Assembly: GCA_907165135.1 (NCBI GenBank)
Contig: OU015566.1
Span: 6,510,001 to 6,574,000 of the forward strand
DNA from: Oikopleura dioica
Taxonomy: Eukaryota > Animalia > Chordata
Reading direction: 5' to 3'
Length of the DNA: 64,000 bases
Shown here: in pieces, positions 1-58,190 of the stretch
Layout of the letters: every line of letters starts with the position of its first letter
Position numbering within the stretch: the first letter of the stretch is position 1
Program-made: the position numbers and the translations under genes
Notes under the pieces: generated by a model
Seen by the model: only the letters and a program-made list of their open reading frames with translations
Told to the model about the DNA's origin: nothing
Databases searched by the model: none

Positions 1-15
1 CTTCTTAACCTGCGA

Positions 16-1050: not shown

Positions 1051-1075
1051 GCCAGCTGCGAATCGGCTTAGAAAT

Positions 1076-5951: not shown

Positions 5952-5965
5952 GAAGGAGGGAAGAG
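5952..5965 (+). promoter_or_regulatory. Polypurine tract (plus-strand primer)
   Basis: GAAGGAGGGAAGAG immediately 5' of the LTR start TG. Confidence 0.85.
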
Positions 5966-7930: not shown

Positions 7931-8199
7931 ATATGGGCGCAAATAGAACAGAAAAACCGCCGGGCACTTCTTTCAACAAACTTTCTGCTGACAAGAATGT
8001 CACGCACCCAAGGGGCAATTTTGAATTTCGTAGAGCTGTTTTCGATTAATATATAAACGAAAAATAATCACCATAAGAATTATAAATTTTATATCAGTAA
8101 AGTCTTTTTATTGAGGAAAAAATGAATTTATAAAAAATATTTTTGCATATCTAACATCATCAGTACGACTGCATAATAAGATAAAGAAATTTTTTTTAA

Positions 8200-8533
8200 G
8201 GAACCCCGTCAACAATTTTCCTCAAAAAAATCGAAAATTTCAAAACAGCCATATTTTGGCTTCTGAGTGTGCCTGGAAGTAAAATTTATCATAAAAACTT
8301 GTTAGGAGCACTTTTTGACCAATAAAATGTAAAATTTAAGCAAAATTGGGATTTTTTCGTCATTTTTCGTCAAAAAGTCCAAATTTCAAATACGATTTTG
8401 AGTGTGTTAGAGTCGAGATCGACCCCCAAAAATGAAGCCTCAAAATCGTTTTCTGACCCGTAGAATCCATTTCCGGGGTCAAAATTTTGAAATTCCGAAA
8501 ACAGATTTTTCGAAAATTGTTGACGAGGGGTCC
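8200..8533. mobile_element. MITE, ~334 bp, TTAA-flanked
   Basis: TIRs GGAACCCCGTCAACAATTTTC / GAAAATTGTTGACGAGGGGTCC with TTAA on both sides. Confidence 0.75.
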
Positions 8534-27400: not shown

Positions 27401-30400
27401 TCAGCGAAAAAAGTCTCTCTGTGGCGCTGGGCGCCAGATTCGTCGATCTTCAAAGAAGACAAAACTTCCGAACTCCGGGGGGACGGCGCTTCAAGCTCAA
27501 CATTCTTCGCATTTGAAAATGCTTTCTATCTCATTATCGTTACGGTGTAAATTCTGCTATAAAATGGCTTGGTCGAGGGACACGTGATAAGCGTATTTGT
27601 AAAGCAACGGAGAGTTACGTAGATTTTTACTGGCATTTTGTTTTGCGCACATTCTTTTGGTTAACGAAAGTATTCTTGTTCATATGCACTCAGAAAAATG
27701 AGCAAAAGAACTTTTAGGGCTAGGGTTAGGGTAAGGATTAGGGTCAGGGTTAGGGTTCATGGAAATATTGACTTTTCGGAAAAATCATCTATAGATGGCG
27801 CTTCTCTCGATTTTGCCGCTTTCTGATAGATTAATGAAGTTATTGTTTAGATGATTTTTTTCAATAGGCTAGGGTTAGGGTTAGGGTTCATGAAAACATT
27901 GACTTTTCGGTAGAGTCATCAATTGATGGCGCTTTTCCTGTTGTTGCCGCTTTCTGATTGGTTAATGAAGTTATTATTTTGATTATTTTATCAATCGGTT
28001 AGGGTTAGGCTTCACGAGAATATTGACTTTTCGGAAAAATCATCTATAGATGGCGCTTTTCTTGATTTTGCCGTTTTCTGATTGGTTGATGAAGTTGTTC
28101 TTTTTGATGATTCCATCAATGGGTTAGGGTTAGGGTTCATGAAAACTCGAAAAACTTGTCCGTAGATGGCGCTTTTTCTCACTTTGCCGCTTTCTGATTG
28201 GCTGATGAAGTTGTTCGTTTTGGATGATTTTATCGATGGGCTTTAAAGTTTGCCTTTTTTCTAAAAAGGGTAGCGTGGAGTTACCAATCTAAAGTCCAGA
28301 ATTAACCCCGCTAAAAGGAGATATAAACGCGTTATCCTTACTGATAAGCGGCAAAATATTAAAGGGCTCCTAAAGGAGGGCTTATCGGCGTAAATATGTG
28401 TCCAACTTTGGTCTATCACTGTTTCCACGTAAATCTGATCTGAGATAATAATTGAAAAAGGCATAATTAATCGGAAAAACGCGATCGTCATAGATCCATC
28501 GTTAAAAACTCGTGTAAACGCATTACCGTAAACGTTCGGGAAAAAGAAGTGGCTGACAAATTCGGTTATATCAAAACGCGCGTCGATCGTAATTCGATCG
28601 AACCTCGTAATTCCATAATTTATAAACTGGTGATAATTTTACACCGGAAAACAGTCAACGCTGGGCAGAAGAAGTCGAGCCTGACGCATTCGATGCTCTA
28701 CAGATGGAACAACAAAAAACGACATTTTCGACCAGTTCAAGGTTCGATTATTATTATACACTATTCAGAAGAATGCTTGTTGGAAAGTCTTAGTGGAACT
28801 TAATTGCAGATAGTCTAGCTATATTTACGCTTTCGACTGGACCTGAAATAATCAGGCTTTCTTTTAAAATATCGCTCATATTATCTTTTGAAAATAGATC
28901 TAGAATTTCATAGTCCCAGTAAAAATAAAACTCATCAAAATTTTCCTAGGATTTACAAGTCATGGTGCAGCATCAGCAGAATATTTCTCTTATTTGAATC
29001 AACACTACCTCATCATTGCCAATTACGAAGACCCAAAAAGTAAGTCTCACCCTTAATCACAAATTTAACCCCCTTCCCCCTTGTCTGTACAAAACTGGCC
29101 AGTCTTTTCTTAACGGGTTAATTTTTAGGAAATGCTCATTCTCGCTACGTTTCCTCGCAACTCTTCTGGTACGATTTCGGCATCGAGCAGTTCGGAACGG
29201 GTGGCACGGGAAATTCTGTCTAGAAGGCGTTTCTAGACGCTGAATCTATCGAATTAATCTTGGAGCCTTGTCTGGAACGTGTGCGGGCCCAAATTGGTGC
29301 AACGACATTTGTTTTGGTTGAGCTGATCGTCCACCAAGCTAATAAACTTGGTCACGAAATTTTCAAGAGCTCATCCACAAAAGTTAGAACGTCACGTGTT
29401 TTACTTTCGCTTAGAAAAAATATTCTGTCGTAAAACTGAAAGGCTTAAAAAAGCTGATGTCTTTTAGAAAGACTTTTTTCGTGAAATTAAAATTGACAGT
29501 GTCAATTGCGCTCAAATGAACTAACGGTAGCCCCGGAAAGGGAGAATAATTTTTAACCTTGTGACAGATTGTCACGCGTTAATATGATCATATCACGCCG
29601 GAACGCGATTTCCAACTTGCAACTAAACCACGTGCCACCCTTTTTAACAGTCACCAAGGACCACATCGATGTCAGAGGTAAGAAAGTTCACTCACTAGAT
29701 GTCGCTTTTTCGATTGATTTAAGCAATCTGATTGGCTAAAGAGATAATTTTCACAATTTTTAAAAAGATGGCGCTGTTTTTTATCTTCTGTATTCTGATT
29801 GGTTGAAACAAACATCACCATCCATTGTGTCAAAAATTACTTTCCTTGTTTTCAAAAGTATCAATTTTAGGAGTCCTAAAATGGAGCACCTTTATCGTCC
29901 AAAAATCACTCTACCTCGTCGGCGCCCGGCACAAAGAAACATCTATCGACGAGTTCGGGAAGATGCGCTACACAACAACCTCTCCCATGTTCAAATTCGA
30001 CCCTAGAACTGCCAAGTTCGAGCTGCTGGAAAACATCTCAATCCCCTCCCACGGCGCTACAGACATTCTTTTCGCAAGGTACAGTAAGATGATTCTGCAA
30101 ATTTGATTTAGGACGCATGAAAGTTGAAAAGTTTTAATTTTATTTGTATCGTCTGAAATTTCAGACAAAATTTGTTTTCAAAACATGTTTCTTTGTCTTC
30201 GCGTTAATAAGTTTATACGTTCAGAATACGCGGACGAAACCTGCTTCTCGTCGGGAATTTCGGTGGCGATCTGACCCCGACAAGAGTTGGAGAAGATGTC
30301 AAAAACGTGAAGAATCAAGTTCAGTCGGAAATTTATGAATTTCACGAGCACAATGAGTCGTTATCCCTGCTCCAAACTATCGAAACTAATGGGTAAGAAA

Positions 30401-31454: not shown

Positions 31455-32300
31455 ACTAAAACAAAGTAGAGCACTTAATTCCAAGCCACTTGCGCGCGAC
31501 CGCAAGTAGAGTTCACTTTTTTACAGGCCAAATAGCGTTCTTTAGAGACCATAAACTTATTTCATCGAGTTTTTTTTTTGTGTTTTCTAGAGCTATTCAA
31601 AAGCTCTAGAATGGCCCTACTTCTAGCAAAAAAAAAGGATTCAGACTTCTTCTTAGTTAAGGCTATTTTTTGCTAGATTAAGGGCGATTCTAGAAAATGC
31701 TCTAGAAATCAATAGACTCTTAAGAGGCCGAAAACAGTTTGAGAAATCACTAGTATTTTATCTAGAAGCCGCTAAAAGAGCTCAATCTACGAGCTTATCA
31801 CCGACTAGACCGACTAGAAATAAAATAATCTAAACAAGCATCAACCTGAATACCTCCTGAATTTCAACCCTCATTCAAAATTTCTGTAGCTTCAACTGTA
31901 ACTGTAACTTGAAAGATTCTTTTCGATTCCGAATGATTCTATTTTCGGATTCTACTATAAAAACTGCTCATTTTCCGAAGAGCTGTAAATTTTAATAAAC
32001 TCTGTAAAGAAGAAAAATTATTCTAGGAAAATTATGCGATAGGAAGAGTTCACGATTGATGGATAGATTGTGACTCGTAACTACCGGTAGGGGAGTATCC
32101 GACAGCGCGGACAAATACTGATAACACCCGCCATAATATTAACAACGTGGACTCAAACGCTAAATAATCATAACCTTGGTCATCCGGACAGTTGACAGTT
32201 AAAGGTCAAGTAAACGAAGAACATACTCAAAGAACTATTGGTCGGATTTTGGACAGAGTCTATAGAGACTATAGACTATAGACTATAGTATACTATGTAG

Positions 32301-32427
32301 TACTATGGTAGGCGCTCCAGAGCACGAGAGCGCGTCCTCAAAAAGGGACGTCTCTCGGGCCCAGAGCGCAGTCAGCCCGCACTCTCCCCGACAGTCAGAC
32401 AGCCCACTAGATTCCGAGCCAGTTGTA
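32301..32427 (+). repeat. 5' LTR (127 bp)
   Basis: Base-for-base identical to 44245-44371. Confidence 0.92.
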
Positions 32428-32428
32428 C

Positions 32429-32435
32429 TGGTGAC
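32429..32435 (+). promoter_or_regulatory. Primer-binding site, short tRNA-Trp-like match
   Basis: TGGTGAC next to the LTR matches the first 7 nt of the classical tRNA-Trp PBS (TGGTGACCCC); only 7 nt match. Confidence 0.55.
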
Positions 32436-32595
32436 GAATTGGAGAAAGACCCGCCCTCAGAGATAGCCTACTTGACCGCCAGCCAGCCAGCCAGCTAGAG
32501 ATTTGGACAGCTCCCTGACCGCCGTCCTGTCAAACCACAGTTGTGCCAGCTAGAAAGTTTGGATTATCTCAAGGAAAGGATCGGATGAGTAGCTC

Positions 32596-34250
32596 ATGAA
32601 TTCTAGTCTTAAGCCGTTTTATGTTAAAATAAGCGATAGGCTACGTAAGCAACACCTCCAGTTACTTGCAAAATCCGTCAACCCCGACTGCACCGCCGAT
32701 GACAAGGTAAAACTCCTCGACGAGCTCAAGAAATTCAAATCGGTTGAAACCTTCGTTGTCGAACAAGATTGTGTAACTCACCTGGAATATTTCCTTCTCT
32801 TTACGCAGTTTTCGGAAACACGAATCGGAATCGACTACTACGGTTTTCTTGATCACGTTCGCCTTAACGTTGAAAGTCGCGGAACGACGACCCTCAAATT
32901 TGAGAATCTGAAAGCCGAAAGCGTCGACAAAGACGAAGAAAGCTTCATCAGCAAGTACACCAAACTCACTCTCGAAAGTTTTCCGAGCTCTGTAAGCCTG
33001 ACAACGATTCATTCCTTATTTGCTGCGATAAAAACGGAATAGTTGTCAAGACTCGCGAAGCACTCGACGGAGAAATTCCTGATCCACGCGAACGATCAAA
33101 AGCTAGAATGTCTGGAGAAACCGAAAGCAAGGTTGAGTATGTCAGCAGAACGAAAATTGAACTCCCGAAATTCGAGAAAAGCGGACTGTCTGTGTCCAGA
33201 TGGATTAACAACTGTCTCTTTCTTCTCGATATTGAAGGAATCTATGACGACAAACGTAGAATTCGAGCGATTCTCCAAGCTGTGCCAGAATCGAAACTTG
33301 GAACGATTACATCTTTGATCCCGTATGACTATCTTCTCAATGACGTTGTCGAAATCATAGAATCAGAACTCGAAATCTCCAAGGAACGTGCGCGAAAACT
33401 TTTGAAAGCCTGTCAGTATGACGAAAAGCTTGATAAGACGCTTGTTGGTTTTGCGAACAGAATCCTTGATCTCGCAAGCATCATCTACAAAGGCAGACAT
33501 CGAGACATCATCAAAGCCTTTGCCAACAGCGAGTTCCTCGAAAAGCTCCCTAGTCCGATCAAATACTGTGAGTACTGGAACCTGAATGAAGATCCGGAAG
33601 GCCGTGATATCCTTCAAAACGCGAAGATTGCCGACCGAATCCTCATCAAAATGAGAAATAAACAGGAAAGCAACTGTAACGTCACCTTCGCTGACGAAAA
33701 AGCCGATGCCGAACCTGCTGTATCGCTTGAGGATAAGGTCAATGAAATTGCAAAGTCTTTGAACGCACTGCAAACGAATGACCGCCGTGGAAGACAGCCA
33801 TACCGTGGACCTCACCAGCGAAACCGATCTTACAGCAATGGTCGACACAGAGGTTATGGACGAAGCAACTCCAGAGATCACCGATCTTCTTCTCGCGGAC
33901 GACATTTCAGACGCCAGAACTACGGAGATCGCCTAAGCTTTTCCAGGGACCGTGGTTACAAGGACAGACACCGTGGTCGAAGCCGGGACAACAGTTTTCA
34001 CCGTCGAAGCCAGGACCGCAGTTACGATCGTCGAAGCCGAGACCGCGGATATCAACGCCGGAGTCAGGATCGTCAGTACCAACGACGAAGCCAAGAACGT
34101 AGTTTCCAAGATCCTAGCCAGGAAAGACGACAGTTGTCCAGAGGAAGAAGCGACACCCCGCATGGTGAACGACGACAAAGGCCGTTCAATGGAAAGTGCT
34201 TTGGTTGTGGCCGATATGGTCACATGAAATTCGAATGTTATTCCTCGTAA
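32596..34250 (+). CDS. gag: Gag, split by a single -1 frameshift near 32975
   Basis: The 33108 ORF frame is open upstream through the end of the 32596 ORF; adding one A to GAAAG at ~32975 fuses them (..TLEKFSELCKPDNDS..); C-terminal CFGCGRYGHMKFEC knuckle. Confidence 0.8.
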
Positions 34251-34526
34251 ATGCCTACTCTCATCCTTTAAAAAGCTCGCTCAGCGTTCCCATCGTCCTA
34301 TTCACGTCAATATCTACGCATATGCCTGCTATCAGCTTCTCATGACGCTTGGTCTGAATTCGATAAGAATCAATTATCCCAGAAAAATCGATTGATATTG
34401 CATCATCAGTGACGCACGTAATCGTTGGTATCAGTTCCCAAAAGCCGAGAAAGCAACTCATCATCTACGACAGCAATCGCTACTATCACTTTCTCAGAGA
34501 CAGAGAGAAACTCATCCATTGACGCA

Positions 34527-37500
34527 ATGTCAACCAATCTCCCTTTTATCACAGCAACGATACGTCAATACAAAGCTTCCCAAGATTACAACGAATGGGA
34601 ATTGAAATTCTTGGTTGATACCGGCGCAAACATCTCAATCATCAACTCTGAAGAACTCACTAAGTCGAAGGAAAAGTTTTTAACCCAAGACATCGAGGAA
34701 GTTGTTGCCAAGCATGCGTCGAACGAAGTCGCTGCTCGCTTCAACAAGAAACTTTTCTGCAATCTTTGCATCAAGAATCAAGAAGTCGAAATCACAAACG
34801 TCGAATTTTATATCGCTGATCAACTTCAATTCTCTGGAATTATCGGCACCGACGTCTTACAAAACTTTCAACTCGACCTTCGAGCCAAGGAGCCATTATT
34901 TCTCAACAACTATGCCATTATTGATACTCATGATGAAGATGAAATTTCAATTATTGATTATCAAGCGTCAAGCTATGATAACCTCTCACGCGGACTTATT
35001 TGCAACAAGGATACTTATGTTTATCCAACAAAGGAAAAATGGATCGATGCGAAAACTTTCCCCGTTCAAGGCGAGTCACTTCGCCTTATCACCAATGGAC
35101 ACCTAATCGAAGAGGGACTGGATGTTCAGAATACATTCTTTGGTCCTAACTTCATCCAAGCAAAAATTATCAACAACACAGATCGCACTCTTCTTATCAC
35201 AAAAGGAACCCTTTTGTCGTTTGAAGAAACTTCGGAACTTCAGAATCATTTCTCGCTGAACACACTCATTGCCCGTCAAGAACTCGATGAAAGTGAACGA
35301 GAAGAACTCGATAAGGAATTTGAAGCATGGAAACTTGAACGAGAAAAACTCACTCAAGAAATTCCAATGACGAAAGAAATCGAGAAAATCACGAATGCAG
35401 TTGATCGACAACATCGCAAACCACTCAACAGAGTCCTTACCGAGAACGATTTTCACTATTGTCGACATTCAAATGATGTTGGCTTTACAAAACACTACAT
35501 TGCCGACATTGAACTTTTGAGCGACAAGCCTGTTTTTATGAGACCTTATCCCATAGAAACAGCAATGATTCCCAAGTTCGAAACGAAAGTAAAAGGAATG
35601 ATCAAAGGTGATATATTGACCGACAACATTGTCTCTGAATACAATAGCCCTTGCCTCTTCGTTGCAAAATCTAATGGCCGTCACCGCTTAGTTCAAAACT
35701 ACAGCGCTGCAAAACGTGGTGAGAAAAGCCTCAACCAACAAATCAGATTGCCGAGATTCCCAAATGCGAACATCCGAAGACTTCTTCAACGAATCTCAGA
35801 CAAACTTGCGCTTTTCTCAGAAAAATTTCCACGATCAAAGGTCGTTTTCTCAACGATTGATTTATCCAACGCGTTCCACAATCTGCTCTTACGCAAAGAA
35901 GCCCGCCGATACACATCATTCATCTTCAATGACAATCAATACTCATTCAAAAGGCTCCCTCAAGGACTCGCATCAAGTCCTATGATTTTTGCTGCATTTA
36001 TCTACAGAGTATTTAAAAATACCTCAACCCAGAATTTCGAAATTTTATCATATCAAGACGATGTGATTATTGTTGCTCCAGAAGAACACGTTATTGCGGC
36101 ACTGGATGTTCTTTTTCAACGAGTGCGCATGCACAATCTGATTCTCAACATTGCGAAATGTAAATTCTTCAAATCATCAATCGAATTTCTTGGATACGTT
36201 ATTACTCCGAATGGATTCTCTCCAAGCGAAAAGAAAATTCAAGCTCTATTAACACGGAAAGCACCCAAAACTTTCAAAGCTCTTCAAGCCTACGCTGGCT
36301 CATTCAATTACTATCAACGTAATTTTCCGAATCTTTCAATTCTTCTTGCTCCAATCACAGACGCGATCAGTAAAGGCGAGAAACGATACAAGCTGACCCC
36401 GGAGATCACGAATGCGATTGAGAAAATTCAGGAGACAATCAAAGAAGGAGGTTTCATCAGTCATTTGAATTACAGTAACGATAACGATAATTTCATTTAT
36501 ATTGCGACAGATGCGAGTTTAACCGCATGTGCTGGCGTAATCGGAAATGTGAGAAAGACTGGATCAACGTTCACGGATTTCTCGAACTGTGGATTTACGA
36601 GCAAAAATTCGTCCAACAAGAAATGCTGCTTTCGTCACGCTCTCGCGAACTCATCGCAATTGCGCATACTCTATCATACTTCACCGACTTGATCCCGAAG
36701 ACTGAACCGCTATTCATTTTCACCGATCACAAAAGTCTTGAATCAACGAAACACGCACCATCATTGAAAACGTCAGGCGCGACACGAACACGTGCCGCTT
36801 ACGCCATTTTGCTCGATTTTCCGAACAGCCGACTGATCCATCTACATAACACTCACCCACTGATTCACGTAGTTGATAGTCTTTCACGATCCGATTACGA
36901 GGAGGGAACCGAAACCATTTTTCAACCCTCGTTGTGTACAAAAACGAAGCAAGATGACTTCAAGGTAAATGTCACACAGACAGCACGGATTGGTCGACCG
37001 AAAGTCTCGAAAGAGACAATACAAAGATATCAGAAGGAGGACCCTGCTTTGTCGGGATTAATTCTTGCTGCCGAGAGAACAAATGGCCACGTTCTTGATA
37101 AAGGCAGTCGATATCGCCTGAAAGAGGACCTGCTGGTCCAGATAACAAAAGCTGGAAAAGAGCTCGTGGTGATACCGAAATCGCTGGGTCGGGACATCGT
37201 CCGACACCTACACGTCGTTTCGGCTCACAGTGGAAGAAATGAAATGTTATCAGTATTAGATAGAGAGGACATTCTTATCAAGGGACGAGAGAGACTCGTC
37301 CGGGAAACAACACGCGAATGTTTGCTCTGTCATTTGACATCAAATCGATACAGATCCAGCGAAATGAAGATGGTGATGAAACCGAACCTTAGTGGACCGT
37401 ACCGGAAAGTATTTATTGATCTCGTTACGTTCCAAATTGAAACGCAAAATCGCGAACACGCTGTCAATTGTCTCACGATGGTTGACGATTTCTCATGCCG

Positions 37501-38413
37501 CCTAACTTATCGCTTTGTTCGAAATAAAACTGCTGCTGTCATATCAAAACGCCTACTTGAACTCACCTGCGAAGTCGGTGGACTTGGCCAGATGGAAGTC
37601 TTTAGCGACAATGGACTTGAATTCGTCGCCTCCAAGACTCAAGATCTTCTTGAATACCTTCAAATGCACGCCGGACAGATCTCACCAACAAACGCTAGAG
37701 CCAATAAAGTCGAGCGCTGCCACAAATCTATTCGCGATAATCTACGAGCCATCGCCCTTACGGAATCAAACGTTCAACACAAATTCGATCTCGCGGTTTC
37801 GACATATAACCATCAGGTGAAGTCAAGCCTAGACATGATGACTCCCATGGAAGTTTTTGGTATCAAACCTCCAAGATACTTTTCTGCTTATCTCCAACAC
37901 CGCCAAAACGAATCGAAATGCGATTCAATTCGAGAATTCACTCAAAATATCAATATTCTCTTCAAAAATCTAGCTTCATTCAAGCTCAACAGATATCTCT
38001 TCAAATCGGAAGACTCGACACCGCTACTTTCGGAAGGCGATATTGTTGTCTTGAAAGAAAACAGCCTCAGAAAACATGATCCTGGTCTTTCTGGACCATA
38101 TGTGATCACGAACACGCGTTCAAACAACTGCCACGATATCGAAAATCTCTTCACCAGCCAAAAGCTGATGCGAAATGGCCGTTTTCTGAGAAAGGTTCAT
38201 CTAAGCGAGGAAGATAAGAAAAATCTGACGTCAAAGAATTTGTTCATCAGAAAATCCGGACATATTCTCTTCGACGATAACGAAATAGATCTTGCGAAAA
38301 GTTCACTTGAGCAAGAACCCGAATTTCTTCTTCAACCCCAGGAAAGTAAAACTAAACCAAAACCCAAATCCGATTCCAAAGTAGAAAGCTCTTACAATCT
38401 GCGCAAAAGATGA
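34527..38413 (+). CDS. pol: Pol (PR-RT-RNase H-IN), -1 frameshift at ~36605
   Basis: FLVDTGAN; TIDLSNAF, PQGL, YQDDVII; ATDAS..RELIA..FTDHKS..VDSLSR; H-H-C-C zinc finger, FIDLV, FSDNGLEF, VERCHK; one missing A in AGCAAAAATTC joins the two ORFs. Confidence 0.92.
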
Positions 38414-40100
38414 TCATTTTCTTCATCTTTCAACTAGCTCTAGCCAAACGATTTTTATGATCGACTCCGGAAAGGCAGCATTCCTTATCAAGTCCAAAAT
38501 CGATAAAAACCTGCAACTGTCTTTGGACATCCCCGCCTTCAACTGGACCAATATCGATAATCCCTGCTTCAACAATCACTCAACTAAAGCTTATGCTCGC
38601 AACGGCACGCACCAGCTCTTCAATGAAATCGAAAATTGGATCAACGGGACATCGTCCGACACCTACACGTCGTTTCGGCTCACAGTGGAAGAAATGAAAT
38701 GTTATCAGTATTAGATAGAGAGGACATTCTTATCAAGGGACGAGAGAGACTCGTCCGGGAAACAACACGCGAATGTTTGCTCTGTCATTTGACATCAAAT
38801 CGATACAGATCCAGCGAAATGAAGATGGTGATGAAACCGAACCTTAGTGGACCGTACCGGAAAGTATTTATTGATCTCGTTACGTTCCAAATTGAAACGC
38901 AAAATCGCGAACACGCTGTCAATTGTCTCACGATGGTTGACGATTTCTCATGCCGCCTAACTTATCGCTTTGTTCGAAATAAAACTGCTGCTGTCATATC
39001 AAAACGCCTACTTGAACTCACCTGCGAAGTCGGTGGACTTGGCCAGATGGAAGTCTTTAGCGACAATGGACTTGAATTCGTCGCCTCCAAGACTCAAGAT
39101 CTTCTTGAATACCTTCAAATGCACGCCGGACAGATCTCACCAACAAACGCTAGAGCCAATAAAGTCGAGCGCTGCCACAAATCTATTCGCGATAATCTAC
39201 GAGCCATCGCCCTTACGGAATCAAACGTTCAACACAAATTCGATCTCGCGGTTTCGACATATAACCATCAGGTGAAGTCAAGCCTAGACATGATGACTCC
39301 CATGGAAGTTTTTGGTATCAAACCTCCAAGATACTTTTCTGCTTATCTCCAACACCGCCAAAACGAATCGAAATGCGATTCAATTCGAGAATTCACTCAA
39401 AATATCAATATTCTCTTCAAAAATCTAGCTTCATTCAAGCTCAACAGATATCTCTTCAAATCGGAAGACTCGACACCGCTACTTTCGGAAGGCGATATTG
39501 TTGTCTTGAAAGAAAACAGCCTCAGAAAACATGATCCTGGTCTTTCTGGACCATATGTGATCACGAACACGCGTTCAAACAACTGCCACGATATCGAAAA
39601 TCTCTTCACCAGCCAAAAGCTGATGCGAAATGGCCGTTTTCTGAGAAAGGTTCATCTAAGCGAGGAAGATAAGAAAAATCTGACGTCAAAGAATTTGTTC
39701 ATCAGAAAATCCGGACATATTCTCTTCGACGATAACGAAATAGATCTTGCGAAAAGTTCACTTGAGCAAGAACCCGAATTTCTTCTTCAACCCCAGGAAA
39801 GTAAAACTAAACCAAAACCCAAATCCGATTCCAAAGTAGAAAGCTCTTACAATCTGCGCAAAAGATGATCATTTTCTTCATCTTTCAACTAGCTCTAGCC
39901 AAACGATTTTTTATGATCGACTCCGGAAAGGCAGCATTCCTTATCAAGTCCAAAATCGATAAAAACCTGCAACTGTCTTTGGACATCCCCGCCTTCAACT
40001 GGACCAATATCGATAATCCCTGCTTCAACAATCACTCAACTAAAGCTTATGCTCGCAACGGCACGCACCAGCTCTTCAATGAAATCGAAAATTGGATCAA
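37190..40100 (+). repeat. Tandem duplication, 1455/1456-bp unit (integrase plus env 5' end)
   Basis: 37190-38644 repeated at 38645-40100; the only difference noticed is T5 vs T6 at 38452/39907; CG microhomology at the junction. Confidence 0.95.
38646..39868 (+). CDS. Second, stand-alone integrase copy created by the duplication (no ATG at the junction)
   Basis: Identical to the pol C-terminal ~407 aa including HHCC and DDE; the ORF track start at 38636 is TTG. Confidence 0.6.
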
Positions 40101-41571
40101 CGAAAATTTCAAAGAACAAGAATCCCATCGTCATCGCCGATTTATCGGTGACCCATTCCGTATCAACTTCTCATGGCCGTCACGCAAATCTCAAACTAAG
40201 GCCGCACTTGAAACTCTCAACAAGAAATCAACAACAAACGCGAAAGAAACTGTCGACCTGGTCAACATTGTCAACAAGGACTTGCTGGAGATTCAATCAG
40301 AAGTTATCAACGACGAAACGAACTTTGAAAATTTTGTTGCTCAACTTTGCGATTTTGACGCAAAAATCTCTGCCTTGGTTATGAAACTTATCAACTCACT
40401 TCTGTTCGATGAATTTAAATCAACAATCACTGGAATTTCCCACGTCGTCATCAAATCTGACTTGCAAAATCTTCTCTCAAGCCTTTGCTCGTTCGATTAC
40501 GATGAACTTTACACAAATTGCGCAAATATCATCAGTTCCTACCCGCTCCGCATAAAGAACATAAACTCTGAAATCTACGAAGACAAGATGATACTACAAA
40601 TCAACGCCACAGCTAAAATTCCGTCATTTGAAAAACTAGGAAATGCCACTCACATTCTGGAAGGACCGAAACCAATCAGCAATCAAGAAGACACCTTCAT
40701 CTACGAAAAACTCATCCTTCCGCACACAATTGCGATTTCAAGCTCAACTTCAACTTCACTCGATCTCTGCGAGGACATTCACGACGCTTATATCTGCTCG
40801 TATGGACAAGTCAACAATTTCAAACTCAACAAATGTGCTACTGATTTGGCAAACAACAATTCAACAAAGAACTGCGAAACAACTCTCATCAAAAGCGACA
40901 AGGATTGCCTATTCTCTCAGTTTCAACGTTACATCATGATAAGTCATTTTAATCAAATAGGTATTTCTTATTTTGACCGACGACACAAAAAACATTTCAC
41001 CAACTTTACACATTCTGATGGAAACTTCGTGTACCAGCTGACTAATAAACCAACGACACTTCACTGCACAAACGACATCTTCTACGCTCATTATGAAGAG
41101 ACGCTAAATCACGTTCAACTTCACACAACAAACACACTTGACCATTTTGACCTCATCAGTCAAGATGATTACCGCAATTCTCAAAATTTTCTCCAACACA
41201 AACGCGCAAATATCTCGACAGCGGAATACAATGACATCGCGAACAAACTCACGGAGAATGAAACCTTTGGAAACAAAATTATCTCACACTACAAAACAAA
41301 CTGGATATCGACTTTAATGACGACCCTTCACACAATTGCTTCGATCATCATACTCCTGATAATTTTCAGAATCACAATCGCCTTTGCTCCACTACTTCGA
41401 CAATTTTTAAATTTCATCTCATCAACAATAGCCTACGGATTGTCACGCCTTCTTCCCAAACTTCTCTTTCTTCGCAAAGCTCAAACCGACGATAAAATCA
41501 ACATGGACGATGCTTCAAGCCCGCCAACTCCTGAGAACCTCAAGGATCTCCCATTCTCGACTAACGCTTGA
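39865..41571 (+). CDS. env: Envelope-like glycoprotein (class I fusion type)
   Basis: Signal peptide MIIFFIFQLALA, furin site RHRR|FIG, heptad region, Cys-rich ectodomain, N-glycosylation sequons, C-terminal TM (IASIIILLIIFRITIAF). Confidence 0.9.
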   Translation: MIIFFIFQLALAKRFFMIDSGKAAFLIKSKIDKNLQLSLDIPAFNWTNIDNPCFNNHSTKAYARNGTHQLFNEIENWINENFKEQESHRHRRFIGDPFRINFSWPSRKSQTKAALETLNKKSTTNAKETVDLVNIVNKDLLEIQSEVINDETNFENFVAQLCDFDAKISALVMKLINSLLFDEFKSTITGISHVVIKSDLQNLLSSLCSFDYDELYTNCANIISSYPLRIKNINSEIYEDKMILQINATAKIPSFEKLGNATHILEGPKPISNQEDTFIYEKLILPHTIAISSSTSTSLDLCEDIHDAYICSYGQVNNFKLNKCATDLANNNSTKNCETTLIKSDKDCLFSQFQRYIMISHFNQIGISYFDRRHKKHFTNFTHSDGNFVYQLTNKPTTLHCTNDIFYAHYEETLNHVQLHTTNTLDHFDLISQDDYRNSQNFLQHKRANISTAEYNDIANKLTENETFGNKIISHYKTNWISTLMTTLHTIASIIILLIIFRITIAFAPLLRQFLNFISSTIAYGLSRLLPKLLFLRKAQTDDKINMDDASSPPTPENLKDLPFSTNA

Positions 41572-42451
41572 GTCGACTTTGCTCTCATCAACAATTCAAA
41601 ATCCAAAAACAAAACAAAAAAAATTCTCAAAATTCCACAAAAAATTCAAAAGAAAAATATTCAAAAGAAAGAAAAGACAAAAAAATACTCAAAAGAAATG
41701 AAAATCAAAAAAATATTTACTAACTCCCTTTCTGTACCATAATGAACAATTCGCACTTTCTTTACTGTTCACTTCCAAACAAACTCTTTACTGCACTAAC
41801 ACGAGTTCACGATTCATTTATTCCATCAAACCCGATAAACACTGAAACAGTTAGGACAAGTCTCAAGCTCCGCTGGGAAGGTGGAGAAGCATTCGTTGCA
41901 CAAAGCCACAGCGAGACTCGACACGTTCAACCGGACTTGCTGTGCCGACTCCTGGACTCGATCTGATTCACATACAAACCGACCGTCTATTTACAAGATA
42001 AGATAATTTCGACACACTTATTACCTGATCGTAGTCTCACCCGTATTGTCTCATGTGAACCTCTCTCTCGCATCCTCCTCATGATATCTCCCAACTTATC
42101 GAGCAAGATTCTCAAATTCTCGAACATTCTCTGAACTAAAAGCAAAAGTTAGACGTTATTTGTAAGCACTTGGGCCGATAACTCACTTATGCTACATTAA
42201 ATAATAACATAATGAATATGAAAATTTTTAAAATGAAAATACTTCATCTATGCAAAATTTAGAATCCCTCCGAATTTCTTATATCCTATAAAATGTATAA
42301 ACAAAATTTCGATGATTACCTAGACAAGCCCCGTCAGTAGGACTTGATTATGATTAAAAATGATTTTATTTGAAATAAAAATTCAAAAATTAAAAATGAC
42401 TCTTGATTTAAAAAATCAACGATAGGTATCAGAAATCAGGATATATATAAT

Positions 42452-43666
42452 TTATTTACAGGTGCGTAGAGAACATTCACTAGAAATCAGAGTTCGAGCA
42501 TTTGCATCATGCTCATCAAATAAGCGCGTACCAAAGTCAGTTAGGGCCTCATGTCGCATCTCAGTAAATTTCAGATTAGTAAGTTCAGTGAAGCCAGCGG
42601 GAAGGGATTCGTTATTAGTATACATATTCACATAATATTCGAATGTAAAATAATCTATGAGCTTGCAGCATTTAGGAAAACCCATATACCCTTCCATTAG
42701 ATAATCATCGACAAATTGACCTCTAGTCTTACAGCTAAGGTCGAGGCCGGAGTCTTTGAGAATCCTAAGAACCTCCCCACGGTCAAGCAAGAGAAGTGGT
42801 AACTGATACTGAAAATGTTTGATTTTTTCGTAAAAGATAGGGTCATCAAAAAGTACATTCGCATAGGACCTAATAAAAAGTTTTAATTCGCCCTCCGTAT
42901 TTCGAAAAAGTTCTATCAGAACAGGTCTCCCAGACATAACATATTCGCCTTCGTTTGTTAATAAAACTCTCGGAATTTTGCCGGGCGCCACCGCTTTAGA
43001 GAAATTTTCATGAATAATTCAATTCAAATTTATAGTATAAAACGTTCAAAATTTTCAGAAAAATAAAGCTTAATAATACATTCTTATTTATTTAGATATA
43101 AATTATACTACTGTTTCAATATTAATTCCTTCCTAAAACTTCATATTCTTGTCGGTCGGGATCCGCTCGTTCTTGATATCGATTTTCGAGGGACTTGCCT
43201 TGAGCAGTTCGAACCAGCTACAATTAAAAATAGAATCTATAGTTTTAGTATGATCAGAAACTCTAGACAATATGTGTCTTGTGCGTTCGCACCAAGAGCT
43301 CTTCTCATGATCATCCGTCCGGCAGGCAGGATGCTTGGCAATCAGGCCGTTTTTAGTATTTAATTATGTTAGTTTTTTTTGTTAATACCGTTCTTTGTTT
43401 AAATTCCTCGATTTCCATTCGTCTTTAAAAATAATTATTTATTCATTTTACAGGCATTTTTACATAGGGACGATGTCGTGACTTTCTCCCAAGGGCCCCG
43501 CTTCACTCGCGACGAGAGTTGATACAGTGCTAGAATTAAATTTAGAAAATAGGCTTCAATCATTAACAAAATTGAATTTAGAAATAACTGACCATATATT
43601 TATAAATAAGATAATAATTTTTTACCTTTCCGCATAGTTTATTTTGATCCTCTTACGAAGATTCAT
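42452..43666 (-). CDS. Putative spliced antisense accessory gene inside the retroelement, unknown product (~280 aa)
   Basis: Coding exons 43666-43626, 43529-43464, 43422-43389, 43333-43262, 43217-~43133, 42993-42452; four phase-compatible GT-AG introns of 96, 41, 55 and 44 nt; last junction uncertain; polyA signal at ~42365. Confidence 0.6.
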
Positions 43667-44231
43667 TTTGTTATCCCTCTAAAATAAATTCTCTTTAAGT
43701 AAATACATTAATCTCTAATAAATTATAATTACAGAATAAAAAATTTATTCCAAAACAGTTTAAAAACGCTCTCTCTCTTTCTCTCTCTCTCTCTCTCTTT
43801 CCGCGCGTATTCCTTATCAGCCGGCGCGGCGTTCTGCAGACCCCCAACTCTCCTTTTCCCACGACCCCCCAGATCTCTCCTTTTCACGCGCGCGCGGCGC
43901 CTTATCAGTTCCACCTCCAAAACTCTCCTTTCGGCGCGCGCATTCGTCTCCGCCGTCCTTTTCTCCTTTTTCGCTCCTTATCAGTATATTTTCCATTTTC
44001 AATCTTTCATCTTTCCATTTCTCCTTTTTTCCAATTTTCCGATCGTTCAAATTTTAAAGTACTGAAATTTCGACACGAAACACTAGTAGCACCTAAGTAC
44101 ACTGTTCCAAAATTTATTATTCCTTGAAAATCTTTATTCTTATTATTATATACAGAAGAAAGAAGAAACTGTTCATTTATTTTATTTTACTCTCACTCTT
44201 CCTTGATTTCAACTGCAAATAAAATTTTCTG

Positions 44232-44242
44232 AACAAGGGGGG
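44232..44242 (+). promoter_or_regulatory. Polypurine tract
   Basis: AACAAGGGGGG followed by AG and the 3' LTR. Confidence 0.8.
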
Positions 44243-44244
44243 AG

Positions 44245-44371
44245 TACTATGGTAGGCGCTCCAGAGCACGAGAGCGCGTCCTCAAAAAGGGACGTCTCTC
44301 GGGCCCAGAGCGCAGTCAGCCCGCACTCTCCCCGACAGTCAGACAGCCCACTAGATTCCGAGCCAGTTGTA
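44245..44371 (+). repeat. 3' LTR (127 bp)
   Basis: Identical to the 5' LTR. Confidence 0.92.
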
Positions 44372-45454: not shown

Positions 45455-46285
45455 TATGTATATCAAAATGCATATTTTTTGACAATGAGTCGTTCCAACA
45501 GATTTTCGAAACAAACCACTTGCCTAACCGCCCGGTTCACAGCGGTTCAACGTGGTTCAAAGTGGTTCAAGGTCTGAATGTTCACCAAATATTGAAATAT
45601 GAATATAAAAATGCTTGTCTAGTCAAAAGGAGTCTTTTGAACAGATTTTTAAACTGAACCACATAGCGAACCGCCCGGTTCGCAGCGGTTCAAAGTGGTT
45701 CAAAGTGGTTCAAGGTCTGAATGTTATATATGATATGTATATCAAAATGCTTGTCTAGTCAAAAGGAGTCTTTTGAACAGATTTTCGAACCGAACCACTT
45801 GGCTAACCACCCGGTTCACAGCGGTTCAAAGCGGTTCAAGAACTGAATGTTCACAAAATAATGACATATGTATATCAAAACGCTTGTCTAATGATAAGGA
45901 GTCTTTTGAACAGATTTTCGAACCGAACCACTTGGCTAAACGCCCGGTTCACAGCGGTTCAAAGCGGTTCAAGCTCTGAATATCCACAAAATATTCGAAT
46001 ATATATATCAAAATGCTTGTCTAGTCAAAAGAAATATGCTGAAATATGTACATCAAAATGCTTCTCTACTCGTAAGAAATCATTTAAACAGGTTTTCGAA
46101 CCAAAACGCTTGGTTGACCGCCCGGTTCACAGCGGTTCAGGGCGGTTCAAGCTCAAAATACTCACAAATTGCTGAATAAAATATATCAAAATGCTTCTCT
46201 ACTCATAAGAAATCATTTGAACAGGCTTTCGAACCAAACCGCTTGATTGACCGCCTTGTTCACAGCGGTAAAGGGCGGCTCTGAA
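45455..46285. repeat. Degenerate tandem repeat, ~135-bp period, 6-7 copies
   Basis: Recurrent TATCAAAATGCTT..TTTGAACAGATTTTCGAACC..CCGGTTCACAGCGGTTCAA. Confidence 0.8.
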
Positions 46286-46311
46286 TACTATTCATACCTA
46301 TACTATGAATA

Positions 46312-47213
46312 CCGAAGGGGAGGCCAGGCCCGTTTGTACAATTCAGTCTGAGACGGGGCCAAGCCGACCCGAAGGGGAGGCCAAGCCCGTTTGTACAAAT
46401 CATTCTGAGACGGGGCCAAGCCGACCCGAAGGGGAGGCCAGGCCCGTTTGAACAATTTAGTCCTAGAAGGGGCCAATCCGACCCGAAGGGGAGGCCAGGC
46501 CCGTTTGTACAATTCATTCTGAGACGGGGCCAAGCCGACCCGAAGGAAAGGCCAGGCCCATTGTACAATTTAGTCTGAGACGGGGCCAAGCCGACCCGAA
46601 GGGGAGGCCAGGCCCGTTTATACAATTTAGTCTGAGACGGGGCCAAGCCGACCCGAAGTAGAGGCCAGGCCCGTTTATACAATTAAGTCTTAGACGGGGC
46701 CAAGCCGACCCGAAGGGGAGGCCAGGGCCGTTGGTACAATTATGTCTGAGACGAGGCCAAGCCGACCCGAAGGGGAGGCCAGGCCCGTTTGTACAATTCA
46801 GTCTGAGACGGGGCCAAGCCGACCCGAAGGGGAGGCCAGGCCCAATTGTACAATTTAGTCTGAGACGGGGCCAAGCCGACCCGAAGGGGAGGCCAGGCCC
46901 GTTTGTACAATTCACTCTGAGACGGGGCCAAGCCGACCCGAAGGAAAGGCCAGGCCCGTTTGTACAATTCAGTCTGAGACGGGGCCAAGCCGACCCGAAG
47001 GGGAGGCCAGGCCCGTTTGTACAATTTAGTCTTAGACGGGGCCAAGCCGACCCGAAGGGGAGGCCAGGCCCGTTGGTACAATTATGTCTGAGACGGGGCC
47101 AAGCCGACCCGAAGGGGAGGCCAGGCCCGTTTGTACAATTTAGTCTTAGACGGGGCCAAGCCGACCCGAAGGGGAGGCCAGGCCCGTTGGTACAATTATG
47201 TCTGAGACGGGGG
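46312..47213. repeat. 57-bp GC-rich minisatellite, ~16 copies
   Basis: Unit CCGAAGGGGAGGCCAGGCCCGTTTGTACAATTCAGTCTGAGACGGGGCCAAGCCGAC. Confidence 0.95.
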
Positions 47214-49152
47214 GAATAGTCTATTTCATTCACGATTATTTCTTTTTAAAAAATAAAAATGGAAGATACTTAAGAAAGTGTTATGGTATTCTTTATGATA
47301 TTCGGTGTGAAGGACCTTCTATCTGAGATAGTATGATTTTAGTGAGGTCACAAACAGCCTGTTTTCTGAGAAAAAGATAGCGGTTCTTGAATTGTCCATG
47401 AAGATCTGTCTTCCACGGTGACTTCCTTCCCGATTCCAGATCACCTTTGCAAGATCACCTGCGCCCCCGAAGAGCTGGGCGCCCGAGAGTCCAAGCGCGA
47501 TCTCCCGCCGAGCGCGCTCGCCCGCTGCTATCATCATCAAGGGCTCCTCCTATTTGCCCTATCACTTTTCTCTGAAGAACACAGACAGATTTATTGTCCG
47601 GCATTGTCCGACATTCAAATAAAAGACCTTACTGTATATTTATATTTTTTGAAGAAAATCGAGAGAAACGACGTAAAAGAACCTAAAATCAAAAAATTTG
47701 ATTTAAGAAGAATTAAAGAAAGAAGTTTATAAAGGTAACCAAGAGAGAAAAATGCTCAAGAATCGAGGAAACGTCGCTAGAAACGCTGAAAAGTTATAAT
47801 ATCGTTGATGTTTCCGGCAAAAACAGAGCAACGAGAGGCTAAAATTTGATTACAGTTCAAATCTTTTAGAAGAAAATTAATGTTGTTGGCAAGCCAGATT
47901 TAGAATTTCCAAGCTTTTCCTTGTTTTTGCCGGATAAGCTAAATCAAGTTAATGAATCCACGGAGCGGTGTTGCTGAGCCCCGTCGGACCGGGAATTGTT
48001 TGACAAGTCAATGTCAGAATTATGGGGAGCGCGATTTTGATTCATTAGAGAGAGGCTTAAAATTTACTCGATTTTTGAGGATTTGAGGGAAATAAACTTA
48101 GCTGAACCCCATATTCATAACAGAGTGAACACCCTTATTTTTTTAAATCAAGAGAAAGAGAAGGCCTTTTTCTTTGGAAATTTCTTTTTTTTTTTAATTA
48201 TTGAAATAATTTTAATAAGATTTCAAATTTGAAAAACCAACTCGCTCAACTTGAAATAAAGGTGCTCATAAACCTGACCTCAACCCTAAGCCGCAGTTGA
48301 GTGCGATTGCGCCATATGTTACCAGCTTCTTCGTTTCTTTTCTTTTCTTTTTCTGGGGCAGATAGTAACCGGAGCGACCTGCAGCCTGATTCGCTTTCTA
48401 ATACTCGGATCATCCGCCTCAGCCCTCATCCGCAGCGGACAGCATTGCGAGACATAAAACTTGAAACAATACGCCCTCTTAGAAGCTTGAGCTTTTTTTG
48501 AGTCTATTGCTGACCAATTAAGGAAAAGAGTACCTTCTTTCTTTGACCTTAAAATTGGTTCATAAATCGATTTTGGATTGATTGGGTAAGGGCTAGGATA
48601 AGGGTTAGGGTTTTCCACTCAGTTATCAAGAAACACGATGGTCGGCTTAAGAATTATCGTTTCTCGACTCTGTTAGATAAGAACGAACATCATAAAAAGG
48701 TTCATTTTGCCAAGTGACGAGCAGAATTATTGCATAATCTCGTTCTCTTCAGATGCGGCGCCACTCCTAGTCAATTTTTTCCGACTTGAGATAAGCCACA
48801 TGTAGTTGAAGAATATTTTTATTGCAAAAAGGGTTGAACGGGATCGATTTTTTTTTCTAAAATGAATCTTATTCTTTAGAAATATTTTTCAATTTTTTCA
48901 ATTTTTTAGGATTTTTTTGGTCCAAATTGTTCAGTTTTGTCTGCCCCGCCTAGGTCGATGGCATCTGCACTAATTCTAGAGCTTGGAATTGATAAGATTC
49001 CAGTACTAACGTTTATATTTAGAAAGCTTGTGTAAAAAATTCCGCTGTCGCTCGCCGGAATGCTGTATTAAACTGAGCGATCAATAAAGCTTGTAAAGCT
49101 ACTTTGCTCGGACAGGCAAGAAGACTAAGACAGCCGGAGAGCTCTAAAAGAG

Positions 49153-54783: not shown

Positions 54784-56067
54784 ACACGATTAGTTGGATG
54801 TGGGCGAGCAATAATAGGATCAGTACTTAAAATTCAAATACAGTAAGAAACAAAGTAGCTTGAGTCTTTTTGAGTTGATTCAATGAATCAAGCCATCTAG
54901 CTCGCTCATTTCATACAGTAGTAGAACAATACAGTGTATTGAACATATCAAATTAACTCTTATCTAGCTACTTACATGCTTAAAGTACAGTTTGTTTGTA
55001 ATAAAAAACAACTGATCGTTGATTAAAAAGATCATTGAACCCGCTAACCAAAAAAAAAACTAGAAGTTTTTGAATGACAAAAATTTCTTTCAGAACCCGC
55101 CCATAAACAATCCGGCCGAAAGGGTGGACGAAGCCGAAGGTTTTTCTAAAAGATTCTTGATTTCAACCGGTTAGAAAAACAAAATCATCAGCCAATTTTG
55201 AATTGGAAAACTTTTGGAATCCCAAAGTTCAAAAACCGAAAAAGCTCAGTTTTCGGGTAGAACCAATTTTTGGAACAGATTTTTTGGAAAGGGTTTTGAT
55301 TGGCCGGTAGGCCAAATACAGCAATCTTATTTGTCATCCAAAAATCCATTTCCAAAAATTGGTATAGTCCCAGTTTTCTGTTTATCATAAACCTGAACTT
55401 TTTTGTTTGTAAAAGAGTGATAATTGTGATTGAGCATCCGGGCCTCAGCTGCTTCTCCGCTCAACTACAGTTATCTTTTCGAGTTATCGCGAGTTTTGGA
55501 AATGCCAAAACGTGGTGTTTAGTTTTTCCTTTTTAACTTTCCCTGAATTGATCTTCCTTGATTCCCGTGTTTAGGCTACCGAAAAAGGTAAAAAAATCGA
55601 ACCTCGGATGAACACACAAAGAAACCAACTTTGCCCAAATCAACACAAACACGAAAACAGCCCCACCCAATTTGCCACAAGCCAAAAAGCGATCCTTTAA
55701 CTTATTTATATAACTCGAGATTACTTCATTTATTTCTCAAATTTTCGCCACGTGTTCAAACTAAGCAATCTTGAAAAAAGGTTGAAAAATGAACATTCAG
55801 TAGAATTTCGAGTCCGAAAAATGAATAATGAATAAATAAATAACTGTAAATACAATAAAAAAAATCAAAAATCTCCACTGTAAAAACACGAAGCCCAAAA
55901 ACCCCCGAAAATAATTCAAAACGATAAAGAAGACAAAATATAAAAAGAGATTTGTATAAACTGTGCACTGTTTTATTGTATGAAATCACACAATCAAAAT
56001 TTGGCCTTTATGGCCAAGAAATAAAGCTGCTTGTAAACTTTTAGTCAATTTGAAAACAAAAAAAATT

Positions 56068-57390
56068 TCAAGCAAACATTCGGATGATTTTTTTCTCGTG
56101 GATCTCGAATCCGCAATGGCAGTAGAACTTCTTTCTTCCGACTTAAAATAGTGTTGGCCAGAATATTCAATTATAAATATTTACTATTTCGTTGACGAGC
56201 AAATTCCATTTTCATGCAAGTCCAGCAACAACAATGGCCACAGGCATGCGAGTATTTTGCGCGTTTTCCATCATCGTAGTATCTGAATTGTAATTTTTTT
56301 TTGATGAATGTGAGCATGAATCTTACTCGTAGCAGATTTGACACATCATGAAAGCCTCAAGTCGTTCTCTTTGGAGGGTCTTCTTGTCGACCGACTTTGC
56401 TCTAGTGTTTTTTTCTACCTCAGGTTCCGGACATTCTTCCTCTTCCAAGTGGGTTCCGTCAAGATCTTCAGCTAAAGAGGCCATTTCATTGGAAGGTTCC
56501 TCGTTGCTTGGGCGGTCTTCATTGTCTTCTGTCACCAAGTCTGCTACATCGCCGTTGTCAAGTTCGAGCTAAAAGATTCTCAAAAAGTTTTTTTGAAAAA
56601 GATTACTGTTCTTCAGTATCTCGAGATGAGGAACACTCGGCTTGGCTGCTTGATAATTTATCCTGAACATCGTGTTGTTGAGTTGATGGTCTTTTATTTA
56701 ATTTCTTGTTCTGCTTCTTCTTTTTTCCTTTCTTTTGGTTGGTACCACGAGCTGATTTTTTCTCTCGGGACTTTTTATCTTCTTCTTCAACCCAATCAGG
56801 GATTTCATATGTGCCAGAAATTGTCTCAAGAGGAGGTTCGAAAACTAACTTCCTATTCTTGATGAACATTCGTCTCTTCCCATCCGCTTGTTTCGCTTTT
56901 TTGCTGTCCCAAATCCAGCCTAGTCGATCAGGAGCCCCCTCCAATGCATTTTTTTCGGTGACAGAGGTTTCGAATAGAAGCAACTGTAAGGAGTGAGACT
57001 GTATTCTTCTTGAAGAGTTACGAAACGGTGCTATTAAATATATTACTAATATAATATAAGAGGTTAACATTATTCTTCATCTTACCCTAACCCTAACCCT
57101 AATCATGAAAACTTACCAGAATTGTCATCTACCATGCGGAGCATCAGCAGCTCATTAGAACCGTTATCAGTAAGCAAAAGAATTTTCGAATCAACGCCTC
57201 TTCTCTCAATTTTACTATCGATGAAATCCGACAGGCACCCTCGTTGAATTTTAGCATAGCTTCCTGGAATGCTCAAAGTGTTTCCATGAAAAGCCTCGAC
57301 AGAGGTCAATTTGATTGTATATCGTCTGGTACTTATTGTTATGTCACTCTCTTTGATACATTTTCTTATCTCTTCGAGATTGGACGTCAT
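56068..57390 (-). CDS. Protein with C-terminal RING-variant finger
   Basis: CQICYE | YDDGKRAKYSHACGHCCCWTC..| FYCHCG; acidic/basic low-complexity middle; one internal junction needs a non-GT donor. Confidence 0.6.
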
Positions 57391-57443
57391 TTATTGAAAA
57401 TAACTCTTTTTCATTCAAAATGTCTCAGGACGATTCAAATTAT

Positions 57444-58190
57444 TCACGCGAACATTCGGATGATCTTTTTCTCGTGGATCTCAAACCCGCAATGGCAGTA
57501 GAACTTCTTTCTTCTCACTAAAAATTGTTGGCAAGAGTGTTGTAAATTAAAATTATTAACTTTCTCTTTGACGAGCAAACTCCATCTTCATGCATGTCAA
57601 GCAGCAACAATGGCCACAGGCGTGTGAGTATTTTGCATGTTTTTCATCATCGTAGTATCTGAATTATTGTTACTTGATTTGATTAATGTTAGCATAAATC
57701 TTACTCGAAACAGATTTGACACATCGTGAAAATCTCAAGTCATTCTTTCCGGAAGGTGTCATTATCCACCGAATTCGCTTTAGTTGATGAGCAAGAGCTC
57801 CTTTCCACTTCACGTTCCATACATTCTTCTTTTTTCAAGTCAGTTTCTTCCAAATCTTCAACTGATGATGCGACGTCAGTGGAAGCCTCCTTATTGTTCG
57901 ACTGGTCTTTATTTCCTACTGTCTACTCCTAACCCTAACCCTAACCATGATAACTTACCAGAATTATCGTCTTTCATGCGAAGATAAAGCAGCTCATTAG
58001 AACCGTTGTCATCAGTAAAAAGAAAAATTTTCGAGTCTTCGCCTTTTCTTTCGATTAGTCTCGTTTTTACTAAAAATCATCTTGTTAGCAGTTTATTTTG
58101 CTCAAAAATAACTTGTCCCGGGCGGTAGAAAAGCTTTTTAATAATGGAAATCGTGGGCAAATCCCATAGAATTCACTTTAAGAACTAGAG
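57444..58190 (-). pseudogene. Tandem paralog of the RING gene, disabled
   Basis: Same exon layout; in-frame TGA at 57740-57742 where the paralog has CGA; 1-nt frameshift near 58017; lacks the K-rich middle exon. Confidence 0.7.

Follow-up and report, generated by a model that had tools for sequence, protein, structure and literature searches.

A predicted spliced antisense gene behind env in a long terminal repeat element of Oikopleura dioica

The antisense gene model

The window analyzed here, a stretch of 64,000 nt from Oikopleura dioica contig OU015566.1 (positions 6,510,001 to 6,574,000), contains a 12,073-nt gag-pol-env element (32299-44371) bounded by two 129-nt long terminal repeats (LTRs) that are 100% identical. 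Inside these LTRs, in the 2659-nt interval between env and the polypurine tract (PPT), lies an antisense cassette in which six minus-strand exons, opposite to gag-pol-env, join into one open frame of 279 codons (phases 2, 2, 0, 0, and 1); the last of these exons has relatives among other sequences. We consider it likely that this is a real spliced antisense gene inside a Tor element. The fuller reading that we favor, at about even confidence, is that an env-bearing Tor-type element carries a resident antisense accessory gene with predicted six-exon splicing and that its product is likely a nuclear regulator. The splice junctions are predicted from DNA, and none is RNA-confirmed; most of the predicted introns are probably real, and the exact six-exon model is slightly favored as it stands. 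The gene and its flanking signals, in their minus-strand order, are as follows:

43765-43990, minus strand: GC-rich candidate promoter/enhancer, CpG-rich, with a GA repeat
43679-43760, minus strand: AT-rich tract ending in TTTTAG, then A; candidate acceptor for trans- or cis-splicing, 12 nt upstream of the ATG
43626-43666, minus strand: predicted exon 1, 41 nt, with the ATG; basic N-terminus with NLRKR
43625-43530, minus strand: intron 1, 96 nt, GT-AG
43464-43529, minus strand: predicted exon 2, 66 nt
43463-43423, minus strand: intron 2, 41 nt, GT-AG
43389-43422, minus strand: predicted exon 3, 34 nt, the least certain exon
43388-43334, minus strand: intron 3, 55 nt, GT-AG
43262-43333, minus strand: predicted exon 4, 72 nt
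43261-43218, minus strand: intron 4, 44 nt, GT-AG
43133-43217, minus strand: predicted exon 5, 85 nt
42994-43132, minus strand: predicted intron 5, 139 nt, noncanonical GA-AG with an AG|GAA donor, phase 1
42452-42993, minus strand: exon 6, the conserved domain, 179 codons plus stop, containing an internal ATG
42365-42370, minus strand: candidate polyadenylation signal AATAAA, ~80 nt past the stop

Every sequence feature listed in an initial annotation of this DNA was found as written. The four GT-AG introns that it proposed were verified in coordinates and frame (phases 2, 2, 0, and 0), the TTTTAG acceptor does follow an AT-rich tract just upstream of the ATG, and a poly(A) signal is present beyond the stop; an A usually stands directly after trans-splice acceptors. 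Its proposal that the last junction uses a GA donor agrees with a published Oikopleura class: the AG|GAA donor context is reported as conserved for GA-AG introns of O. dioica and Eurytemora (PMC7072748), and Tor3a elements splice env using GA donors (PMC4402516; published systems are described here and below from those parts of the articles that were covered). Three of the five intron lengths (41, 44, and 55 nt) are near the host's peak of 47 nt (PMC3531137). We rejected a GT donor located 7 nt upstream of the GA one, since its phase does not fit the nearest acceptor and its use would require an extra 25-nt AT-rich exon at a lower score. An alternative in-frame route that skips exon 3 also exists.

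Exons 1-5 contain 47% GC versus 20% in the introns (Fisher p 6e-14, which is descriptive only, as the segments were picked on this contrast), and by segment the range is 34-56% for exons and 17-27% for introns. GC by codon position in exons 1-5 was 0.56/0.42/0.42, highest at position 1 (p 0.02), and the same peak occurs in exon 6 and in pol, not in env. A stop-free frame of at least 188 codons arose in 8 of 2000 local shuffles. When the interval was parsed by dynamic programming on composition only, the ATG and introns 1, 4, and 5 were recovered, while introns 2 and 3 were merged, skipping the 34-nt exon 3. With textbook splice weights and a short-intron bonus, the top result was exactly the six-exon model; 9, 3, and 1 of 1000 shuffles scored equally high, optimistic figures since the weights and bonus were chosen post hoc. 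Upstream of the gene, the candidate promoter holds three CTGATAAG (GATA-type) sites of the seven in the window and all three of the window's AAAGGAGAG units. Rfam and tRNA scans gave nothing of note.

Four raw-read RNA runs placed 13, 9, 2, and 0 reads on the region, all partial and mostly on an A-rich tract, and four RNA contig runs returned pieces of 18-46 nt only, with no joints. None of the eight runs was shown to contain the element or its flank, so they are not evidence on expression; Tor insertions are reported in <5% of individuals (PMC4402516), and blank runs therefore say nothing on that question.

Relatives of the last exon and the predicted product

With exon 6 as the query, a word-index protein search returned no match, and the full HMMER search of 1.84 billion proteins returned two. 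One (P0004, 175 aa) matched at E 4e-5 with 26-28% identity over almost all of the exon, its end falling at about the same position; the other (P0003, a bacterial pilin repeat, E 9e-7) was rejected, its score being the sum of six weak repeats. A profile built from exon 6 and P0004 then detected P0006, a 301-aa gene model from O. dioica; over 104 residues, it shares 73% identity with P0004. Judged by these relatives, the last exon is protein-coding, and the 179-codon open reading frame (ORF) toward which the initial annotation had seen the upstream exons leading (42993-42452) is real coding sequence. The protein family is likely tunicate-restricted and new.

The last exon might also be the entire gene, an unspliced or singly spliced antisense ORF, with the GC/AT mosaic upstream of it representing promoter or untranslated region that parses into exons by chance. 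This would suit the internal ATG of exon 6, the lack of small introns in a relative (described below), and a composition-only parse just marginally above shuffles. Against it, similarity to P0006 begins only a few residues past the predicted acceptor and ~17 residues upstream of that first internal ATG, so that the frame must start either in an exon farther upstream or at a codon other than ATG. In addition, the phases of all five introns chain, the donor agrees with AG|GAA, and exons 1-5 have the GC excess at codon position 1. Upstream of the junction, exon 5 and P0006 resemble each other weakly without gaps (p 0.04, the stretch having been selected once the data had been inspected). We regard a gene confined to exon 6 as quite improbable.

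Locus scans for the gene left viral contigs and genome contigs blank, and metagenome scans yielded a single locus (L001, 1119 nt, without element context) that matches P0006 residue for residue. In L001, 179 N-terminal residues run uninterrupted up to a 207-nt insertion (786-992), beyond which the domain starts. The insertion is TA-flanked, has terminal and internal inverted repeats like those of a miniature inverted-repeat transposable element (MITE), and is absent from the allele of P0006, which itself ends before the domain's end. L001 looks decayed, and its interruption together with the short P0006 points to turnover more than to a host gene under conservation. Between the regions upstream of L001 and of the window gene, there was no significant likeness (402 of 1000 shuffles). 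Intron conservation, a check that the initial annotation proposed for other copies, is unsupported, as L001, the sole relative with readable DNA, has no small N-terminal introns. An N-terminus of this kind could mean that the window lineage gained introns or captured exons, or else that the N-terminal model is wrong.

No usable family for the exon 6 product emerged from Pfam, PHROGs, PDB sequence, or ESM Atlas searches; phrog_3496 (E 0.002) matches P0004 and P0006, not exon 6 of the window. Neither a bZIP domain nor similarity to HBZ or APH appeared as a Pfam match in exon 6, P0004, or P0006. AlphaFold models had predicted local distance difference test (pLDDT) values of 34 and 39, and Foldseek searches of viral and PDB structures gave no match with E < 0.001; the best row, Bro14 (Bro-N/KilA-N-like), had E 0.04 and probability 0.14 and came from the pLDDT 39 model. 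The best VIA-align result was Z = 4.3. The searches, with Foldseek among them as recommended in the initial annotation, found neither family nor fold.

Residues ~118-138 of P0006 include the strings SILK and KKVRF, absent from the window's protein, which we take to be PP1-docking motifs. The N-terminus of P0006 has a predicted coiled-coil-like stretch. The predicted 279-residue protein of the window has no transmembrane stretch, and at residue 2 it carries NLRKR, a string that is found also at the C-terminal end of the element's integrase and that resembles the nucleosome-binding peptide of foamy-virus Gag (PMC12125541). By analogy with maize Grande gene23, for which such a role has been proposed, and with HBZ, for which it has been shown, the product could perhaps regulate the element in trans from the nucleus, a role that we propose tentatively.

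The host element and the origin of the antisense gene

The element has the Ty3/gypsy-type order of gag, protease, reverse transcriptase, RNase H, and integrase, together with LTRs, a primer binding site, and a PPT:

32299-32427, plus strand: 5' LTR, 129 nt, with a TGG-starting primer binding site directly after it
32593-34250, plus strand: gag, two overlapping ORFs in this copy (32593-33042 and 32904-34250)
34422-38413, plus strand: pol (protease, reverse transcriptase, RNase H, integrase), its frame broken in two at RNase H in this copy
37190-40102, plus strand: tandem duplication of ~1.46 kb, integrase plus env start; 1457/1457 aligned bases identical, one gap
39865-41571, plus strand: env, its start ATG overlapping the integrase stop
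44231-44242, plus strand: PPT, adjoining the 3' LTR
44243-44371, plus strand: 3' LTR, identical to the 5' LTR

Pfam matches in pol were RVT_1 (1e-24), rve (3e-9), and aspartyl protease (5e-6), and the gag product had a weak CCHC zinc knuckle match (E 0.14). Env has a hydrophobic N-terminus, a furin site with F-X-G immediately after it, 10 cysteines, 10 N-glycosylation sequons, and a C-terminal transmembrane stretch. The element fits the description of O. dioica Tor3b elements, a class set here by description and not by phylogeny. Its pol and env adjoin without a gap, as in Tor3b-like elements, a space between the two being the mark of Tor4b (PMC4402516). Published Tor3b and Tor4b elements share with it the gag-pol-env order, near-identical LTRs, and an Env that combines cysteines and a C-terminal transmembrane stretch with a furin site and F-X-G (PMC4402516); the N-[L/V]-G motif of Tor Env descriptions was not found as such in the element's Env. 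A second env gene model named O. dioica (P0002) is identical to the window's Env at 546 of 552 residues, and this near-identity implies a young element family with two copies or more. The stretch of ~800 nt that separates the env stop from the poly(A) signal of the antisense gene (41572-42360) comprises an A-rich tract and then a GC-richer block, with short ORFs only.

The cassette might have arrived late, inserted into the element after integration or joined to it as an assembly chimera, in which case it would never have been reverse-transcribed. The frame breaks and the perfect duplication, possibly assembly errors, are consistent with such an event, as is the lack of a clean target-site duplication: the best at the element ends is 3 nt, with no clean 4-5 nt, and the left flank is a short tandem repeat. 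The 1.46-kb tandem duplication may be real (a template switch) or an assembly artifact. Against a late arrival, identical LTRs leave little time for it (at a resolution of 129 nt only), the cassette sits exactly between env and the PPT, and no terminal inverted repeats were found bounding it. A nested DNA transposon origin of the cassette is likewise unsupported. We judge a late insertion or chimera to be highly improbable.

If the gene is instead a resident of the element, its transcription would be driven by the GC-rich region upstream of it or by the 3' LTR, and the host's permissive spliceosome would splice the transcript, including at one GA donor. The transcript would end at its own poly(A) signal, so that the antisense RNA need not overlap env. 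Introns lying opposite to the genomic RNA strand are invisible to the spliceosome on that RNA and are reverse-transcribed intact. On the genomic RNA strand, the introns of the cassette would read CT..AC/TC and be copied unspliced, and hence persist. The argument of the initial annotation that antisense introns survive retrotransposition follows in this way from LTR element replication; the same orientation implies that intron gain is open to the gene just as it is to genes of the host. With its basic N-terminus, the soluble product of 279 residues might then act in trans on chromatin, tuning or protecting transcription of the element, a last step that is the most speculative and that we think rather unlikely. 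A more far-reaching version, which we think unlikely, is that this fourth gene behaves as a host gene throughout, with its own promoter, spliced-leader addition, and five introns gained in place (including the noncanonical one), and that it belongs to a new tunicate-restricted family with a swappable N-terminus that serves as a chromatin regulator. If so, the cassette would be an intron-gain shelter inside a reverse-transcribed genome.

Several observations weigh against a resident accessory gene with the six-exon structure. The composition-only parse score was equalled in 19, 14, and 10 of 300 shuffles that preserve local composition, so that 3-6% are as good, and the parse that did return the full model depended on the post hoc choices mentioned above. 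A host-derived splice model from window sequence gave 43 candidates versus 50 in shuffles, not above chance. The N-terminal part of L001 and P0006 is acidic, unrelated in sequence to that of the window gene, and without small introns, which leaves exons 1-5 almost without homology support. The NLRKR string is a lead only, since 2036 of 5000 shuffles also have some 5-mer in common with proteins of the element. On its genomic-RNA strand, the cassette carries 8 AATAAA versus 6.6 expected, with no purge of premature poly(A) signals, and only one copy of the cassette was seen. Finally, the breaks in the gag and RNase H frames and the 1.46-kb duplication make assembly error in this copy possible.

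Both the unpurged sense-strand AATAAA and the single copy also fit a passenger: a fast-evolving gene specific to Oikopleura, of which one lineage of the element would have captured a genomic segment in reverse, with promoter, introns, and poly(A) site, and which would be spliced like a host gene with no benefit to the element. The promoter, introns, and poly(A) signal are indeed host-like, and the O. dioica annotation has P0006 as a gene model. On the other side, the frame is intact across six exons, and no near-identical donor was found among the 1.84 billion representatives or in word-index searches. The host donor for which the initial annotation called was absent in close form from all three protein searches, which speaks for an accessory gene, with the restriction that an unannotated donor would escape them. 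We regard a captured passenger as possible and rather unlikely. What stands of the initial claim of a self-contained accessory gene is its position within the LTRs, its antisense orientation, its coding last exon, and its predicted frame; the searches found no family or fold for it.

Known antisense genes and other features of the window

Antisense extra genes are known from plants, Botrytis, and HTLV (the T-cell leukemia virus of humans), and a multi-intron one behind env in a chordate element did not turn up in our literature searches. Close precedents are maize Grande gene23, RIRE2, and Retand TRP28, which are likewise antisense and located between pol and the 3' LTR (PMC7264820; PMC11963269). 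These plant ORFs have their own promoter, a product proposed as a nuclear regulator, and no clear homologues outside (PMC7264820; PMC11963269). Unlike the window gene, they belong to elements without env, encode a different protein, and are described as ORFs, with introns unmentioned in the covered parts of PMC11963269; a search for spliced antisense transcripts in plant elements has been called for (PMC7264820). The window gene is coding, antisense, and placed between pol/env and the 3' LTR, as the aORF-3R designation entails. The gene brtn in Boty-like elements of Botrytis cinerea is also an extra antisense gene in a Ty3/gypsy element, compared here by description; its host is fungal and its element lacks env (via PMC8365987).

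The initial annotation had likened the gene to HBZ of HTLV-1, which is antisense, spliced, and carried by an env-bearing genome, with a nuclear regulator role as the proposed analogy (PMC10186651). The likeness holds for position and fails for family, as no bZIP or other family was detected, and the plant and fungal antisense ORFs are nearer. HBZ is driven by the 3' LTR, has spliced and unspliced forms, and contains a bZIP domain (PMC10186651), whereas the window gene has five introns of host type, lies clear of gag, pol, and env, and gave no bZIP match. CERV of Caenorhabditis elegans Cer1 is, like the window gene, a spliced accessory gene of an animal LTR retrotransposon, encoding a novel nuclear protein; unlike it, CERV derives from a spliced Cer1 mRNA and exports genomic RNA (PMC10309623).

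Internal promoters and GA donors are known in the Tor family, and the main text of the Tor article, in the parts covered and with its supplement excluded, mentions no fourth or antisense gene in Tor3b or Tor4b (PMC4402516); our literature search, within the same limit on that supplement, turned up no article reporting an antisense gene in these elements. Descriptions of Tor give it gag, pol, and env only, and a spliced fourth gene would make Tor complex in the manner of a retrovirus. If real, the gene would be a candidate for the unexplained tissue-specific embryonic expression of Tor. Antisense extra genes of LTR elements are without known function, and Oikopleura embryos permit reporter injection and knock-down, which makes the question testable here. 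Comparison of intron-rich with intron-poor family members could reveal intron gain, including that of GA-AG introns, inside a retroelement.

A second Ty3/gypsy element occupies positions 1-6440 of the window, with gag at 1-1050, pol at 965-4585, and no env. Between its pol and purine tract lies a sense-strand ORF of 160 codons (4996-5478) with a C3HC4 RING finger (Pfam E 4e-9), possibly a ubiquitin-ligase cargo gene; it has no sign of introns, in contrast to the antisense spliced gene. Just downstream of the element with the antisense gene are tandem arrays (45464-47316), namely 15 copies spaced 57 nt apart and an imperfect repeat of greater length. Repeats of 76-120 nt lie dispersed at 27739-28222 and 56067-58024, beside telomere-like TTAGGG/CCTAAC runs, and MITE-like inverted-repeat pairs occur at 25909-26502, 7975-8623, and 58667-59001.
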